Assembly: GCF_965641715.1 (NCBI RefSeq)
Contig: NZ_OZ282453.1
Reading direction: 5' to 3' (one strand)
Length of the DNA: 64,000 nucleotides
DNA from: Escherichia coli
GTDB lineage: Bacteria > Pseudomonadota > Gammaproteobacteria > Enterobacterales > Enterobacteriaceae
Part shown: positions 9,594 to 17,403 of the stretch, piece after piece
How positions within the stretch are numbered: the first letter of the stretch is position 1
Layout of the letters: each line of letters opens with the position of its first letter
Position numbers and translations under genes: made by a program
The notes under the pieces: generated by a model
The model's database searches: none
The model's input: only the letters and a program-made list of their open reading frames with translations
What the model was told of the DNA's origin: nothing

Positions 9594-10932
9594 CATAAGC
9601 GCTAACTTAAGGGTTGAACCATCTGAAGAATGCGACGCCTCGGTGCCTCGTTAAGACGATGCCTCGCGTTCTTCAATTGCGTTTTGTAGGCTGTCAGGGA
9701 TACTGTCCCACGAATGGCCACCTGTAAGCTCCAGATGACCATTTTTGTTATTCTCCACAACGAGTTAGTTCTTCTTTTCGGATCCGGCACTTCTGGGGGG
9801 GAAATCCAGCGATGGCTGGATTATGTCGTCAATTAAAAATGCGGCGAGTAGATTAGCAAATATCCACGCTTTCGCGAGTTCAGGTTCCTTTGCACGCAAA
9901 GCATCCAGGTGCAGCAAACTTTTGAGCCGCTTAAAAGCCAGTTCAATTTGCCATCGCAGACGGTAACAATCAGCCACTTGCTCTGCTGAATATTCATCTT
10001 CCGGTAATGATGTTAGCAATAGCACATGGCCCGCTGCTTCCAGCGTTTCCGCCTGAACTACTCGTCCTTTTCGACGATTCTCGCTGAGCAGTCGGGTTTT
10101 ACTGATTAATGCTTTTTCGGGAGGAAGTGATACGGCAATGAGACGTGCCGGAAAGGGAGCTCCGGCTTTTTTATTACCTGAATTGCCTATCATTACAGTG
10201 GTTTCACCGTTCTTACCGCAATCCAGCCCGCGCAGAAAACCCATCATGTCAAAGCGCATTCCTTCTGCAGTTAACCAGCGCAATCCTCGCCAGTGAACCC
10301 GGACGATATAATCAGCTTCTCCAAAAGCAAGTGAGCGGATACATTCGGGACGCGAACCGAATCCCCGGTCAGCAATGCGTATCTCGTCTGCCGTTTGCGC
10401 AAATCGGTCCAGCCGTTCAGCGTCTCTGCTGTCGGTTAGCTCAAAATCAGTGAACTGACAGGTATGAGGATCATATCCCATATGTAGTCGCCATTCAGCG
10501 CTGCCGCCCCCGGGCGCACTGATTGCTGTTCCATCGACAAGACGCAATCTCTTTCCGCTTGTACAACCCGTAACTGCGGCGCGTACAGCAAGTGTTTGTG
10601 CGGCAAGTATGCCAAACCAGTCGGCGGCATTCCGCAGCCGCTTCAGGAGAGCCACGTCAGATAATGTTGCAACGTCATGGAGCTGAGCCCATGCAGTGAC
10701 TTCACGTAATGACATCCCCCCGGGGCCGTAAGCCAGCCCCAGACGTAGCAGAGTTGCAGCATCACGAATTTCGCGGCGGCGGGTTAGAGCCCCGGCATTA
10801 CGTGCCGAAGTATCCAGTTCTTCGGGCTTACCAATATGGGCCAGAATTGCTGACCAGTTATCGTGAGAGTAATTCATCGGCACGTTAAATCATATCAGGC
10901 GTAATACCACAACCCTTAAGTTAGCGCTTATG
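9594..10932 (-). mobile_element. IS186 insertion sequence
   Basis: 23-bp perfect terminal inverted repeats CATAAGCGCTAACTTAAGGGTTG (9594..9616 and reverse complement 10910..10932) around a 372-aa IS4-family transposase. Confidence 0.85.
9765..10883 (-). CDS. insL: IS186 transposase
   Basis: 372-aa ORF beginning MPMNYSHDNWSAILAHIGKPEELD..., recognised as IS186 InsL. Confidence 0.8.
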   Translation of the reverse strand: MPMNYSHDNWSAILAHIGKPEELDTSARNAGALTRRREIRDAATLLRLGLAYGPGGMSLREVTAWAQLHDVATLSDVALLKRLRNAADWFGILAAQTLAVRAAVTGCTSGKRLRLVDGTAISAPGGGSAEWRLHMGYDPHTCQFTDFELTDSRDAERLDRFAQTADEIRIADRGFGSRPECIRSLAFGEADYIVRVHWRGLRWLTAEGMRFDMMGFLRGLDCGKNGETTVMIGNSGNKKAGAPFPARLIAVSLPPEKALISKTRLLSENRRKGRVVQAETLEAAGHVLLLTSLPEDEYSAEQVADCYRLRWQIELAFKRLKSLLHLDALRAKEPELAKAWIFANLLAAFLIDDIIQPSLDFPPRSAGSEKKN

Positions 10933-12137: not shown

Positions 12138-12439
12138 TGACAATTCAGGAAATTCCGCTGACAGCGGACAACCAGCAGTTCAGCATCGTCCTGGGCGGTG
12201 TCACCTGGCGGATTAGCATCATATGGCGCGATCTGTACTGGATTATGGACCTGCAGAATGACAGAGGGGAGCCGGTAATCTCCGGTATTCCTCTCGTCAC
12301 TGGCGCTGATCTGCTGGCGCAGTACGCCTGTATGGGGCTTGGTTTTAAGCTGTTGGTGGTCTGCGATGACAACACACAGGATTATCCCACGAAAACTGAC
12401 CTGGGCAGTCGCAGCCATTTACTGGTATCAACGGAGTAA
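12137..12439 (+). CDS. phage tail protein (possibly gpX-like)
   Basis: 100-aa ORF translationally coupled to neighbours. Confidence 0.3.
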   Translation: MTIQEIPLTADNQQFSIVLGGVTWRISIIWRDLYWIMDLQNDRGEPVISGIPLVTGADLLAQYACMGLGFKLLVVCDDNTQDYPTKTDLGSRSHLLVSTE

Positions 12440-12441
12440 GC

Positions 12442-13503
12442 ATGTCACAGAACTGGATGAGACATTTCGAGCTGCAGCTTGTGGACGGGAACGGTCAGGG
12501 AATTGAGCTAAGTGATTTTAAAGTCACCTTTACGATCGACTGGTTCAACATCAGCAGTGCGTCCCGGGTAGGGACTATCAAAATTTATAACCTCTCGGCA
12601 GATACTGTGAACCGAATCACCGGGCAGGAGTTTTCGAAAGTGCGTCTGATTGCGGGTTACGACGGTATCGCGCCGGAGGTGTCGGCAAGCGACGTCGGGA
12701 CTGTGCGGGAAGTTGACGCGGCGGACGTGGGCCAGAGTGATGGCCGCAACTACGGACTAATTTTCAGCGGTGAAATTCGCTACTCGGTCACAGGAAAAGA
12801 CAGTCCGGTTGATTCCTACGTCCTGATTCAGGCAGCAGATACTGATCTGGCTTTTGCCACCAGTATAACCTCACAGACGCTGGCTGCCGGTTACACGGTC
12901 GCTGATGTGAACCGTGCGCTGATGAAAGACTTCGAAGCCAAAGGCGCGACCGAAGGCCTGACGCCTGAAATGCCTGCTACTGTATTCCCCCGGGGGCGGG
13001 TGCTCTTTGGCATGACGCGGCATCTAATGGATAACGTAGCCGGGCAATGTGGCGCAACATGGCAATTCGTGGACGGTCAGCGCCAGATGGTGGCGAATAA
13101 CGAATATGTTCACGAAGCGATTGTGCTCAACAGTGCTACCGGGCTTATTGGCATGCCGCAGCAGACCATCGGTAACGGCGTAAACGTCCGTGCGCTCATT
13201 AATCCGAACATCCGGGTTAACGGGCTCATTCAGCTGGATCAGGCTTCTGTATATCGCACCGCGTTGTCGAACAACGATATCGCTATGGCTGGTGGGCAGA
13301 TCACCGACCAGAACACGGACGGAAATATTACGCTCAGCGGCACCACATCACAGCCTGCCAGCATCGCAACGGATGGCGTTTATATTGTGCGCGGGATTAT
13401 GTACACTGGCGACACAAGGGGCCAGGTGTGGTACATGGATATGATGTGCGAAGCGCGTGGCGCGGCGGATCTGTATACGCAATCGGCTTTGCAAAGGGGA
13501 TGA
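12442..13503 (+). CDS. phage baseplate hub-like protein
   Basis: 353-aa ORF between tape measure-associated genes and baseplate genes. Confidence 0.4.
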   Translation: MSQNWMRHFELQLVDGNGQGIELSDFKVTFTIDWFNISSASRVGTIKIYNLSADTVNRITGQEFSKVRLIAGYDGIAPEVSASDVGTVREVDAADVGQSDGRNYGLIFSGEIRYSVTGKDSPVDSYVLIQAADTDLAFATSITSQTLAAGYTVADVNRALMKDFEAKGATEGLTPEMPATVFPRGRVLFGMTRHLMDNVAGQCGATWQFVDGQRQMVANNEYVHEAIVLNSATGLIGMPQQTIGNGVNVRALINPNIRVNGLIQLDQASVYRTALSNNDIAMAGGQITDQNTDGNITLSGTTSQPASIATDGVYIVRGIMYTGDTRGQVWYMDMMCEARGAADLYTQSALQRG

Positions 13504-13506
13504 GCA

Positions 13507-13848
13507 ATGAGGGGTATTATTTTTCTGTTAGCTGTCTTTTCTGCGTGCAGCGCGTGGGCGGATGGCTTCACGGTTAAATGCGGTGGCTACACTATGGTTG
13601 CAAACCAGGGCGAGTTATCGACAATCAACGGTGAAAGAGTTACCTCTCAAAAAATCACCGAACTGGGTACCAATGGTTTGAAAGTAGACATGGGGATTAT
13701 GCCTGCCAAAGACGGTAACAACTACGGCTTTGAATACATTCGTCGCCCTGGTACCGAAACGCGATTCCTGAATGTGCAACTGCTGCAGAACAGCATGGAC
13801 GCGCCGAAAATCATCGGGTCTTTCCCGTGTAAAAAGGTTAATCAGTAA
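13507..13848 (+). CDS. phage-encoded lipoprotein (possible exclusion protein)
   Basis: N-terminus MRGIIFLLAVFSACSAWA is a signal peptide with lipobox (FSAC); RBS AAGGGGA upstream. Confidence 0.5.
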   Translation: MRGIIFLLAVFSACSAWADGFTVKCGGYTMVANQGELSTINGERVTSQKITELGTNGLKVDMGIMPAKDGNNYGFEYIRRPGTETRFLNVQLLQNSMDAPKIIGSFPCKKVNQ

Positions 13849-13907
13849 AGCTATAATCCATTTCTGACATCAATTTCAGGCAGTTGATTCTGGGGTTAAG
13901 GATTATT

Positions 13908-14684
13908 ATGGCTACACCAGCTAAAGCATCCAGTAACTATGTTATCCAGTTCGGGGCGATGCTTGAAGAAAATGCTTCGATAGATGAGTTCACTTATCGT
14001 TACGTTTTACGCAATTATTCATCCAGCACTGAAGGCAACGATGTTAGCGCGGTTGGTTTTGCTTATGCTTTAAATGGTGAAGATGATCTAGCCTATGAAC
14101 ATTTTCATAAGCATCTGAAAATGGGCAACATCACTATTGCAAAGAATTTCGCTGCTTTCCTTTTCAAACGACATCACTACCGCCAGTTACATGAAATTAT
14201 TTATCAACTTGCTGATGCGTTTGGCGGGAAAATGTTGACTATGCTTGCTGCTGCGGAATCTTATCGGGTTGGTGACCTGGCGGCAATCCAGAAATACATG
14301 GAATGGCACTGTCGTTTACTGTCAGAAAACGATGACAAGTACGGAGCTGAAGCCTATATGCGTGAGCTTATCGATGGTGTTAAAGGATGTTACGAGGCAA
14401 AAGTTTGTACACCTGAGCAGTTTAGATTGCTTGGGGACATCACTCATTCGATCCTTGAAGAACGTAAACTTATTCCCGGTAGCTTGGGAATTTTCAGCTC
14501 TATGGGCGGTGATTATCTCGTGCAAGTGGAGAAAGCTACTCCGGAAGATATCGTTTTGATGAATTTTGATTTGGCTGAAAGGATATGTTCTGAGTCAAGG
14601 TTAGACGACTGTGAAATGACTGCTCGTTTCTCGGTTTTAAGGGAGTCCCATACGAAGGAAACTTATGACTATTCAGAGTTTTGA
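13908..14684 (+). CDS. hypothetical protein, partner of HEPN-like gene
   Basis: 258-aa ORF with RBS TAAGGA; AT-rich compared with flanking tail genes; 3' end overlaps next gene by 20 nt. Confidence 0.5.
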   Translation: MATPAKASSNYVIQFGAMLEENASIDEFTYRYVLRNYSSSTEGNDVSAVGFAYALNGEDDLAYEHFHKHLKMGNITIAKNFAAFLFKRHHYRQLHEIIYQLADAFGGKMLTMLAAAESYRVGDLAAIQKYMEWHCRLLSENDDKYGAEAYMRELIDGVKGCYEAKVCTPEQFRLLGDITHSILEERKLIPGSLGIFSSMGGDYLVQVEKATPEDIVLMNFDLAERICSESRLDDCEMTARFSVLRESHTKETYDYSEF

Positions 14685-15036
14685 TTTTTTGCGTTCAAGT
14701 GAACATTGTTTAACTCTGGACGAAGAAGTTGGTTATCGTAATGCCGTATCGCGAGCCTACTATGCTATGTTTCATCGTGCTGGCGAGGCTCTGAAGCATG
14801 TCCCCTCTGTAGAACATAATCACCATGCTAATTTAATCAACTACATGCAAGGTAGGATGGGCACACCTAAGGAAGAAATACCTCCTGCAAGATTAAAAAT
14901 ACTTGCATACGATCTCCGCCAAATGAGACAAGCGCGGAATGAAGCCGACTATCGCTTATCTGACTCCAAGATAAATGCTGACGTTGCCAAGGAATCATTA
15001 TTAACCGCGCAGCATTTTTTTAAACGGATTTCATAA
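14665..15036 (+). CDS. HEPN-domain-like protein
   Basis: 123-aa ORF with SRAYYAMFHRAGEAL helix resembling the HEPN fold; strong RBS GAAGGAAA. Confidence 0.5.
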   Translation: MTIQSFDFLRSSEHCLTLDEEVGYRNAVSRAYYAMFHRAGEALKHVPSVEHNHHANLINYMQGRMGTPKEEIPPARLKILAYDLRQMRQARNEADYRLSDSKINADVAKESLLTAQHFFKRIS

Positions 15037-15057
15037 AAAGTCACTATTTACCACGAA

Positions 15058-15079
15058 CCCGCCATCCGGCGGGTTTTTT
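15058..15079 (+). terminator. intrinsic terminator after HEPN cassette
   Basis: Hairpin CCCGCC-ATCC-GGCGGG followed by TTTTTT. Confidence 0.6.
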
Positions 15080-15098
15080 GCTTTCTGGAGCCTACTAA

Positions 15099-15851
15099 AT
15101 GGCAGTATCTGACCAGACCCGCAGCGGCGACCTTGCCGAAACATTCAAATCTGAACGGGAAACAACAAAGAACCAGATCCGTGTCGCCTTGCCTGGCATT
15201 ATTCAGTCATTCGATCCTGATGCGGTGACGGCAGTTGTGCAGCCTGCTATCCGTTCGGTTGAAAAGGATAATGACGGCAACCGCATTACCAAAAATTACC
15301 CATTGCTGGTGGATGTGCCAGTGGTATTCCCACGCGGCGGAGGATGTACGCTAACGTTCCCAGCTAAAGCCGGTGATGAATGTTTGGTGATTTTTGCCGA
15401 TCGTTGTATTGATTTCTGGTGGCAGAGTGGCGGGATACAGGAGCCGGTCGATGACAGAATGCATGATTTATCGGATGCGTTTTGTATTGTCGGTCCCCAG
15501 TCGCAGGCAAGGAAGATTAGCGGTATTAATACCAGTGCCACACAGTTGCGTAGTGACGACGGCAGCACCTATTTTGAGCTTAATCCTGATACCAGGAAAA
15601 TTAAAATTGTCGCTCCGGGTGGTCTTGATGTGGTTGCCCCTCTGGCTGATTTTTCTGAGAAAGTAACCATTCATGGCCTGTTAACCTGGATGGGGGGCAT
15701 GGTGGGGTCTGTTGTTTCTGGTGTGGCTTCAAAAATCACTGGTGCTGTTGAGTTTTTGGGTAGCGTGAAGGCTAACGGCAAGCTAATCGATGATACGCAC
15801 ACTCATGGTGGTGTTCAGCGCGGTGGAAGCAATACCGACGGAGTAAACTGA
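15099..15851 (+). CDS. phage baseplate spike/assembly protein (gpV-like)
   Basis: 250-aa ORF; position and size as in P2-type V-W-J-I order. Confidence 0.45.
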   Translation: MAVSDQTRSGDLAETFKSERETTKNQIRVALPGIIQSFDPDAVTAVVQPAIRSVEKDNDGNRITKNYPLLVDVPVVFPRGGGCTLTFPAKAGDECLVIFADRCIDFWWQSGGIQEPVDDRMHDLSDAFCIVGPQSQARKISGINTSATQLRSDDGSTYFELNPDTRKIKIVAPGGLDVVAPLADFSEKVTIHGLLTWMGGMVGSVVSGVASKITGAVEFLGSVKANGKLIDDTHTHGGVQRGGSNTDGVN

Positions 15852-16204
15852 TGCGATACAGACGTGAAGACGCCGATGGCGATTACACCTTTGGCAGCGG
15901 TGATGATACCTGGCTGATTAACTCACCGGAGGCCGTGGCGCAGGCGGTAAAAACGCGATTCGAATTGTGGTATGGGCAATGGTTTCTAGACACCACCGAA
16001 GGGACTCCGTGGATCCAGTCCGTACTCGGTAAGCAGAAGCCGGAAACCTACAACCTGGCGATCCGTAAGCGCATCCTCGAAACGCGGGGCGTTAAATCAA
16101 TCCTCTCTTTCAATACGACGGTGGATACCACGACCCGACGTGTCATGTTTTCCGCTGAAATCGACACTCTCTATGGAATAACGACTGTTACATCGGAGGC
16201 GTAA
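15851..16204 (+). CDS. phage baseplate wedge protein (gpW/gp25-like)
   Basis: 117-aa ORF coupled to neighbours. Confidence 0.45.
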   Translation: MRYRREDADGDYTFGSGDDTWLINSPEAVAQAVKTRFELWYGQWFLDTTEGTPWIQSVLGKQKPETYNLAIRKRILETRGVKSILSFNTTVDTTTRRVMFSAEIDTLYGITTVTSEA

Positions 16205-17403
16205 TGGCTCTGAACCTTGATTCTCTCGGTTTATCTGCAAAGGTAACCGCGGAGGGGATCAGTGCGCCTGATTATCAGACGATACTCAGCACCCTGATTA
16301 GCTATTTTCAGCAGATTTATGGCAGTGATGCCTACCTCGAACCGGACAGCAAAGACGGCCAGATGGTGGCTCTGATGGCGCTGGCGATTCATGATGCCAA
16401 TAATATGGCGATAACTGTCTACAACTGTTTTTCACCGGCAACCGGCTATGGGGCTGCACTCACCAGTAACGTGAAAATAAATGGTATTTCACGTAAAGGC
16501 GCGACGAACTCTACGGTTGATTTGCTTCTTACAGGAACTGCCGGAACAACCATCATTAATGGCAGCGTGAAAGACAGTAATAATGTGATATGGCGTTTGC
16601 CTGCTTCAGTGGTGGTCGGCGTGGATGGTACAGTGATGGCGACCGCAACATGTTCCGTCAGTGGTGCAGTGGCGGCGCTGGCTGGAACTATCACTGAAAT
16701 TAATACGCCAACCCGTGGCTGGGTTTCGGTAACTAATCCTGCTGCGGCTACTGTTGGCTCTCCGGCAGAAACTGATGCTGAGTTACGTATCCGCCAGTCG
16801 CAAAGTGTTGCATTGCCATCAATAACCCCATTTGAAGCACTGGATGGTGCTGTTTCTAATGTTACCGGTGTAACCCGCCACAAACTCTATGAAAACGATA
16901 CTGGTTCGGAGGACGGTAACGGGTTACCGCCACACTCTGTTGCTGTAATTGTGGATGGCGGTGATGTGACGGATATTGCTCAGGCTATCAGAGGGAATAA
17001 AGGCCAGGGGACAGCCACTCACGGTACAACATCCGTTACGGTTCCGGATAAATACGGCAATCCCCATGTAATCAAATTCTCGCGTTCCAGTGATGTACCT
17101 GTTTATGCCCGGATTAAATTAAAAGTTTTTACGGGTTATACCTCACAGATAGGGCAGCAGATCCAGCAGGCTATTTCCGACTATATCAATAGTCTGATGA
17201 TTGGTGATTCGGTCCTTTTAAGTCGCATTTACTCACCGGCGAATCTTGGCGTGGTGAGTGGCGGGAATGCACGCTATTACGATATTCAGGAACTGACGAT
17301 TGGGAAATCCCAGGGGACTTTGTCGTCATCAAACATTGATATCAGATATAACGAATCTGCGTCCTGTACCCCGGAAAATATCGTTATAACGGTGGAGTCA
17401 TGA
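16204..17403 (+). CDS. phage baseplate protein (gpJ-like)
   Basis: 399-aa ORF following the W-like gene. Confidence 0.45.
   Translation: MALNLDSLGLSAKVTAEGISAPDYQTILSTLISYFQQIYGSDAYLEPDSKDGQMVALMALAIHDANNMAITVYNCFSPATGYGAALTSNVKINGISRKGATNSTVDLLLTGTAGTTIINGSVKDSNNVIWRLPASVVVGVDGTVMATATCSVSGAVAALAGTITEINTPTRGWVSVTNPAAATVGSPAETDAELRIRQSQSVALPSITPFEALDGAVSNVTGVTRHKLYENDTGSEDGNGLPPHSVAVIVDGGDVTDIAQAIRGNKGQGTATHGTTSVTVPDKYGNPHVIKFSRSSDVPVYARIKLKVFTGYTSQIGQQIQQAISDYINSLMIGDSVLLSRIYSPANLGVVSGGNARYYDIQELTIGKSQGTLSSSNIDIRYNESASCTPENIVITVES

Follow-up and report, generated by a model that had tools for sequence, protein, structure and literature searches.

In a prophage of Escherichia coli we found a horizontally mobile two-gene accessory module. 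It lies at positions 13840-15055 of the 64,000-nucleotide stretch that was analysed (contig NZ_OZ282453.1 of assembly GCF_965641715.1; hereafter, the window), in the slot between the baseplate hub gene and the spike gene of an SEN34/Brunovirus-like prophage. Its first gene (gene A) encodes a 258-amino-acid TPR protein and its second (gene B) a 123-amino-acid protein with a HEPN fold. The pair is a HEPN toxin-type module with a partner other than the MNT nucleotidyltransferase, and it is described by no entry of PADLOC v2, NCBIfam, Pfam or PHROG. HEPN RNases are recurrent effectors in abortive infection, toxin-antitoxin (TA) and CRISPR-associated systems, and we assign a probability of about 50% to the reading that the pair is a TA-like or abortive-infection module, in which a HEPN effector would be controlled by a fast-evolving TPR regulator or sensor.

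The host prophage is a myovirus whose relatives include Salmonella phage SEN34 (Brunovirus), Yersinia phage YP3 and several E. coli phages, and this stretch of the window is identical to the corresponding one in E. coli TL20. The flanks of the slot were detected in 272 of 5,426 complete E. coli genomes, the full cargo segment in 2. Comparison by blastn with relatives that carry other cargo gave sharp breakpoints at 13838/13839 on the left and at 15055/15056 on the right, which delimit a variable segment of 1,216 bp (13840-15055, no strand assigned). As predicted from the sequence, this block is more AT rich than its surroundings, with a GC content of 41.8% compared to 53.5% in the upstream tail block and 49.3% downstream. 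The original prediction had taken the block for a cassette of three genes. However, the conserved left flank reaches the end of the first of these, a gene for a small secreted protein, which all relatives examined carry at this position (95% identity in YP3, 84% in SEN34, 54% in E. coli phage 689R2 and 54% in GZ7 of Klebsiella) and, at that position, in many IMG/VR loci as well. The intrinsic terminator is indeed present, but the conserved right flank opens with it, and relatives that carry eight other cargo types (loci L001 and L011-L017) have it as well. Since the first gene lies inside the left flank and the terminator inside the right flank, the insert consists of two genes, not three. In the relatives examined, it is the variable cargo alone that is swapped in and out.

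A position within the tail module might suggest that the pair is a structural or assembly component of the baseplate or tail, e.g., a chaperone of the spike, but nothing else speaks for such a function. The pair is missing from >99% of the prophages with near-identical hub and spike genes, and unrelated genes replace it in the same slot, for which at least eight other cargo types were found. Moreover, it is not restricted to tail modules: at least six different accessory positions of unrelated temperate phages of Gammaproteobacteria hold it. It adjoins integrases at prophage ends; it stands just after the antiterminator gene Q, beside methylase and HicAB genes; it lies between lysis and terminase genes; it occurs in tail modules of siphoviruses, with antirepressor and Arc genes as neighbours; in another tail module it separates the tape-measure gene from a tail-protein gene; and in a P2-like phage of Vibrio it sits between the late-control gene B and the replication gene A. 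These contexts rule out a structural role, which we regard as effectively refuted, and show repeated horizontal transfer among temperate phages; every locus examined was a temperate phage. The view that the pair is cargo and no baseplate component was thereby upheld.

Gene A (13908-14684, plus strand; 258 amino acids counted from the ATG) and gene B (14665-15036, plus strand) overlap by 20 nt (14665-14684). Gene A might also start further upstream, at a TTG (13884), but no Shine-Dalgarno sequence accompanies this codon. In contrast, AAGGA is found 5 nt ahead of both ATGs, at 13898-13902 for gene A and at 14655-14659, inside gene A, for gene B, so that 14655-14684 on the plus strand forms a translational-coupling junction. 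The co-orientation of the three open reading frames (ORFs) and the overlap with a Shine-Dalgarno sequence inside the upstream gene, both noted earlier, are thus seen in the sequence. Overlaps of 4 to 20 nt are typical of this pair over 76 paired viral loci. These loci come from a scan of IMG/VR that started from the HEPN side and yielded 186 loci; 80 of these were retained. In 76 of the 80, gene A lies directly upstream of the HEPN gene; of the four exceptions, three are interrupted by the end of the contig and the fourth carries a truncated HEPN gene. From the partner side, all 13 loci contained the HEPN gene, and in an unbiased look-up of ten diverse members a gene for ~255 amino acids was immediately followed by a HEPN gene for ~125 to 135 amino acids in all ten. 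The pairing is effectively obligate. The two proteins also codiverge, with a Mantel r of 0.94 on pairwise identities that was reached by none of 999 permutations, and protein A evolves faster than protein B (mean identity, 25% versus 38%). Adjacent genes that always occur together are what is expected of a type II TA system, and presence or absence between relatives together with a distinct composition is what is expected of a moron. In locus L098 an intact partner gene is accompanied by a truncated HEPN gene. In another sequence, present on two contigs (L118/L119, 2370-3163), the partner gene is apparently split by a frameshift into two ORFs, each of which matches the family profile, and the HEPN gene is intact; this could be a sequencing error or decay, or the HEPN protein could be tolerated without a full-length partner.

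The assignment of protein B to the HEPN fold, originally proposed from the look of one helix, was confirmed by sequence and structure. The Pfam HEPN family PF05168 matched it with an independent E value of 0.0018. A family profile made from 16 homologues matched 2hsb (AF0298, UPF0332; E = 6.5e-4), 9xbd (E = 4.6e-3) and 9xbc in the PDB; these were the sole HEPN matches in that search, and no HEPS-like chain was among them. The chains 9xbd and 9xbc differ by a Y-to-F exchange in an RNRSDY motif, and no publication on them was found. The AlphaFold2 model of protein B is a five-helix bundle (pLDDT, 91.2), and its best matches in Foldseek are almost all HEPN proteins: 2hsb, the HEPN domain of sacsin, 1ufb, 1wol, 8xeh, 1o3u and Csm6. 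In RefSeq the protein is named "HEPN domain-containing protein," and several homologues are labelled "UPF0332 family" by JGI; for 105 of the 106 clusters of the family there is no precomputed Pfam domain.

Ten residues, E21, R25, R30, Y32, Y33, H37, H54, R91, D95 and Y96, are invariant in homologues of protein B down to ~27% identity. Three of them, R91, D95 and Y96, belong to the HEPN motif, R91-N-E-A-D95-Y96 (R-x3-D-Y). A conserved Arg and His had been expected in this motif; the Arg is there (R91), but the motif has no His, and the conserved histidines of the protein, H37 and H54, are elsewhere. An AF0298-type variant of the HEPN-T group has been described in which the motif His is lost, often with an Asp instead; a second conserved His N-terminal to the motif is predicted to form an alternative active site, activity is predicted to be retained, and MNT was proposed to nucleotidylate a conserved Tyr at the C-terminal side (Anantharaman et al. 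2013, PMC3710099). The residue set of protein B, E/R/R/YY/H...H...RxxxDY, agrees with this variant. The assignment of protein B to the HEPN fold of the AF0298/UPF0332 (HEPN-T) type is solid, and its catalytic competence is plausible.

Protein A was modelled with a pLDDT of 90.5. It has an N-terminal, helical domain of TPR-type repeats (residues ~4 to 163), in which tandem helix-turn-helix repeats match TPR profiles, and a small C-terminal alpha-beta-beta-alpha-beta domain (residues ~169 to 243). No Pfam or NCBIfam family was found for it, and it belongs to phrog_17809, a family without assigned function. When its profile was run against 1.84 billion cluster representatives, just 68 clusters were retrieved, nearly all of 245 to 290 amino acids; in AFDB50, the same full-length fold is present in many Gammaproteobacteria, and every match is labelled uncharacterised or "TPR protein." Among 57 diverse homologues there is not a single invariant column. 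Conservation is confined to small or hydrophobic positions plus N80 and N219 and is strongest in the C-terminal helix (residues ~212 to 228). This pattern suggests that protein A acts by binding and is no enzyme. Features of an MNT nucleotidyltransferase (GSX10DXD) were looked for and not found: there is no nucleotidyltransferase fold and there are no conserved acidic residues. This agrees with the earlier statement that the partner is no MNT; it is a TPR protein with a small alpha/beta domain and without conserved catalytic residues.

How could such a pair work? If it is a TA-like or abortive-infection module, the HEPN protein would be an RNase-type toxic effector, with R91, D95 and Y96 plus H37 and/or H54 as its alternative active site. 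Its TPR partner would bind the HEPN protein and keep it inactive, probably by contacts made through its more conserved C-terminal domain; since there is no MNT, neutralisation would be by binding and not by AMPylation of the conserved tyrosine. The fast-evolving TPR surface may serve as the input that releases or activates HEPN, most plausibly when it binds a protein of a superinfecting phage; loss of the partner is another possible trigger. The predicted outcome is RNA cleavage together with growth arrest or abortive infection, to the benefit of the resident prophage. A more specific form of this proposal is a hitherto undescribed, phage-borne immune module in which a rapidly diversifying TPR protein would sense a protein of an invading phage and control a His-shifted (RxxxDY) HEPN RNase of the archaeal AF0298/UPF0332 type by binding, without AMPylation; this we put forward only tentatively. 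The function in "defence or exclusion" that the original prediction had favoured is a proposal from genomic context and domain content.

Several findings weigh against a toxin or defence module, and they bear at the same time on its alternatives. We infer toxicity, RNase activity, an A-B complex, the trigger, the timing of expression and a phage phenotype alike. The His of the canonical Rx4-6H motif is absent at the motif position in 15 of 15 diverse homologues of protein B, which therefore could be a noncatalytic, ligand-binding HEPN protein. On these grounds the HEPN protein might be catalytically dead and form, together with the TPR protein, a nontoxic regulatory or ligand-binding adaptor that binds, e.g., nucleotides or RNA, as in the C-terminal HEPN domains of sacsin or kanamycin nucleotidyltransferase. 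Many HEPN domains of the PF05168 type are indeed thought to be noncatalytic, substrate-binding modules (PMC3710099). However, the ten charged or aromatic residues are invariant to ~27% identity, including two His and the RxxxDY block, and an alternative active site has been proposed for the AF0298-type family (Anantharaman et al., PMC3710099), so that we consider an adaptor improbable.

A second set of unfavourable findings concerns the relation of the two genes. Protein A has no DNA-binding domain of the kind used in autoregulation by type II antitoxins, and damage to the two genes does not show the asymmetry that a toxin and an antidote should give, with one example in each direction (L098 and L118/L119). 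The same findings touch the possibility that the pair is a plain addiction-type TA system, which stabilises the prophage or persists as selfish DNA without any sensing of phages. The layout is classic for that, with an upstream partner, a downstream small protein of toxin fold and overlapping ORFs; the two proteins codiverge, the slot can hold a YafO-family toxin pair, and HicAB adjoins other copies of the pair. But the partner is large (258 amino acids), lacks a DNA-binding domain and has a fast-evolving TPR surface, as would be more fitting for a sensor than for a simple antidote. In addition, there is a case of an intact HEPN gene next to a frameshifted partner, and all loci examined are from temperate phages. 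Plain addiction is therefore rather unlikely in our view.

The third set concerns expression and cargo. No conserved, dedicated promoter of the pair was found, and a consensus scan called no plus-strand promoter in the region; in Salmonella the pair abuts the upstream gene, so that it may be expressed only with the late genes. Also, the alternative cargo of the slot gave no established defence system in PADLOC, a weak PycTM-like match aside, and since this weak match is all that PADLOC returned, a "defence hotspot" is not established by that route. Expression from a late operon, rather than in the lysogen, would fit a module that benefits the phage during the lytic cycle, e.g., by counterdefence, by shut-off of host RNA or by the exclusion, late in infection, of coinfecting phages. 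Indeed, the pair is co-oriented with late genes in nearly every context (tail operon, after Q, lysis/terminase) and, besides having no conserved promoter of its own, abuts its upstream gene in L008. But it is also found at a prophage end beside an integrase, outside late operons (L018/L019; cluster 5). It is sporadic among otherwise near-identical phages, which argues that it is dispensable for lytic growth, and L022 and L025 show the usual layout of a moron, with a terminator-like site 4 nt (L022) or 92 nt (L025) downstream of the pair and, in L025, a 10/12 promoter match upstream. A role in the lytic cycle thus seems unlikely, and the TA-like or abortive-infection module stays our preferred reading.

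Next, we compared the pair with known systems. That it is possibly undescribed, as had been suspected, is in line with the database searches, since neither protein has a significant model in PADLOC v2 or NCBIfam. Against PADLOC-DB v2.0.0, protein A gave no match in four of five subfamilies and in the fifth only a nonsignificant one to PDC-M71B (E = 0.038); protein B gave only marginal matches to generic HEPN models (E = 0.002 to 0.05). NCBIfam has no model for the pair, Pfam gives only HEPN and TPR repeat models, and the three PHROG families concerned are without assigned function.

The pair resembles HepT/MntA (type VII TA) in having a small, standalone HEPN gene downstream of, and overlapping with, a partner gene. 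It also shares the Tyr right after the R-motif, the residue that is AMPylated by MNT in HepT, and AF0298, the closest solved relative of protein B, is in the MNT-associated HEPN-T group (PMC3710099). Unlike HepT/MntA, the pair has no MNT but a TPR plus alpha/beta partner, and its motif is RxxxDY instead of RX4HXY. Y96 is invariant, but since the partner is not a nucleotidyltransferase, acceptance of AMP cannot be inferred from it; without an MNT partner and with an RxxxDY motif, neutralisation by AMPylation is not expected. The AF0298/UPF0332 proteins (COG1895-like, PF05168) are the best match of protein B by both sequence and structure and share the SRAYYxMFH helix, the second conserved His and the R-x3-D-Y block. 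The match is, however, below the usual significance in Pfam (independent E value, 0.0018), and the family of protein B differs in being phage borne in Gammaproteobacteria and in having a dedicated TPR partner.

HepS of the Gifsy-1 prophage and Tha of Staphylococcus aureus prophages are HEPN abortive-infection RNases that are triggered by tail proteins of the incoming phage (PMC13043305, PMC11087260). Like protein B, they are HEPN effectors at accessory positions of temperate phages, but they have canonical motifs where protein B has RxxxDY. HepS is a solo HEPN protein (R100-H105) without any partner, the inhibitor of Tha is encoded antisense, and neither of them has a TPR partner. DS-28, found with DefensePredictor, is a validated two-gene system of E. 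coli that consists of a HEPN nuclease and a partner of ~252 amino acids (PMC13092281). It is similar in that a small HEPN protein is paired with a protein of ~250 amino acids that lacks an assigned function, but the gene order is reversed and the HEPN protein has 163 amino acids and a canonical RNSVAH motif. An identity of the pair with DS-28 was rejected on account of this canonical motif and of the partner, which by eye, with no alignment run, bears no resemblance to protein A; the accessions of the window proteins are absent from the tables of the DefensePredictor paper (PMC13092281). The slot itself is comparable to the hotspots of P2 and P4 (Rousset et al. 2022, PMC9122126) in being a fixed site between conserved genes with alternative, compositionally distinct cargo. 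In contrast to these, it belongs to another phage lineage, lies inside a baseplate gene block and holds cargo most of which is not recognisable as a known defence system. We did not find the hub-to-spike slot in the literature that was consulted.

The AF0298/UPF0332 branch of HEPN proteins lacks the motif His, and its structure has been solved since 2006; no demonstrated activity or biology was found for it in the literature. Here, this branch is joined to a dedicated, nonenzymatic TPR partner and has moved repeatedly between accessory sites. If the pair is a defence or toxin module, it would add a new architecture, a TPR sensor with a noncanonical HEPN protein, to prophage-encoded immunity, and it would offer a tractable E. 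coli system in which to study RNA cleavage by a His-less HEPN protein and its restraint without AMPylation by MNT. If the more specific proposal of an immune module is correct, this would be, to our knowledge, the first functional and mechanistic assignment for the AF0298/UPF0332 subclass, and a case in which a sensor has replaced the MNT partner. As a candidate for a new toxin-like or antiphage module, the pair is well suited to experiments, and the hub-to-spike junction of SEN34-like prophages would then be a cargo hotspot worth mining, the other occupants being largely uncharacterised.

Two further variants of the slot in E. coli hold strongly diverged versions of the A/B pair. In the BH100N type, present in 27 complete genomes, the two proteins share 32% and 37% identity with those of the window, and the OkiPb01696 type, present in 33 complete genomes, has a HEPN protein with 27% identity to protein B of the window. 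In BH100N (NZ_CP025703.1; L015, 1620-2015) the 131-amino-acid HEPN ORF is unannotated in RefSeq, and five of the six carriers of this type that are listed, out of 27 genomes in all, show a single "hypothetical protein" under the match; the missing annotation looks like a systematic gap. Elsewhere in the lineage the slot is filled by a DUF4282 protein, a DUF2335 protein or unrelated small proteins. In E. coli EC17CM13 (L012, 818-1808), a 190-amino-acid helical protein is followed by a YafO-family toxin, a toxin-type pair in the slot. The 170-amino-acid slot protein of Escherichia phage vB_EcoM-689R2 (L001, 2897-3409) has a canonical R-x4-H motif (RNNLFH) and no match in PADLOC; judged by this motif, it may be a second, unrelated HEPN-type cargo. 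A recurring cargo (L016, 670-1400; L017, 665-1393) consists of a protein of 176 to 184 amino acids with two transmembrane segments, which has the weak PycTM-like match (E = 2.6e-4), and a following acidic protein of 56 to 59 amino acids. In Yersinia phage YP3 (L002, 3077-3877) a solo helical protein of 266 amino acids fills the slot. As a distant homologue of protein A it was rejected, the hhalign match being not significant (E = 0.09; probability, 0.6%). With the BH100N homologue it gave a blastp E value of 0.001 in a tiny database, and its C-terminal segment can be aligned, though not significantly, to the C-terminal domain of protein A; the YP3 protein may be partner-like but very distant, and it has no HEPN protein beside it.

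On the left, the slot is bordered by the baseplate hub gene (12442-13503, plus strand; phrog_196, E = 2.4e-88), a conserved backbone gene with 79 to 98% identity to its counterparts in relatives, and on the right by the gene for a gpV-like baseplate spike (15099-15851, plus strand; TIGR01644 phage_P2_V, E = 2.8e-8), also conserved backbone, whose product is named membrane-puncturing spike protein in RefSeq. A perfect TATAAT hexamer (13852-13857, plus strand) in the 59-nt spacer ahead of gene A is a weakly supported candidate for a -10 element; the best -35 candidates match in only 3 of 6 positions, and the hexamer is kept only in the Citrobacter relative. The terminator (15055-15082, plus strand) is a stem-loop at 15055-15076 followed by a T run and is the single terminator-like site on the plus strand of the region. 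An Rfam scan of 12400-16300 gave only subthreshold chance matches and thus no sign of an RNA antitoxin. The stems of the terminators downstream of the pair are closely similar (AACCCGCC...GCGGGTTTTTT) in the window (15055-15076), in L022 (6152-6172) and in L025 (6239-6259), and these three stand in unrelated contexts. This may be the coincidence of a common shape, or a short sequence may travel with or attract the cargo.

The small secreted protein encoded between hub gene and cargo (13507-13848, plus strand; 113 amino acids) is part of the conserved backbone, and its function is unassigned; it matches phrog_3443 (E = 1.6e-47), a family without assigned function, and has no match in Pfam. It had been called a lipoprotein with the lipobox FSAC. 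This label is doubtful, since the lipobox is not kept in homologues, which have AxA sites for signal peptidase I instead (AMA|A, AFA|D); the window copy, too, has such a site (AWA|D). The members of the family have a signal peptide and two conserved cysteines, as read from their sequences, and a secreted periplasmic protein with two conserved cysteines would be the safer description. To find a periplasmic protein encoded among baseplate genes is unexpected; this one could be a conserved superinfection-exclusion factor.

Finally, two differences from the TL20 prophage were observed elsewhere in the host prophage. A ~1.3-kb insertion at 9595-10931 is absent from the TL20 prophage, which is otherwise 99.99% identical. 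It carries an ORF for an IS4/IS186-like transposase of 372 amino acids (9765-10883, minus strand). Since the insertion interrupts the tape-measure/lytic-transglycosylase gene, the prophage of the window is probably defective for tail assembly. The segment 18412-19941, which spans the C terminus of the tail fibre and the tail-fibre assembly genes, matches TL20 with 93.6% identity, but inverted; it is thus an invertible host-range segment that the window and TL20 carry in opposite orientations. In TL20, a recombinase pseudogene lies beside it.

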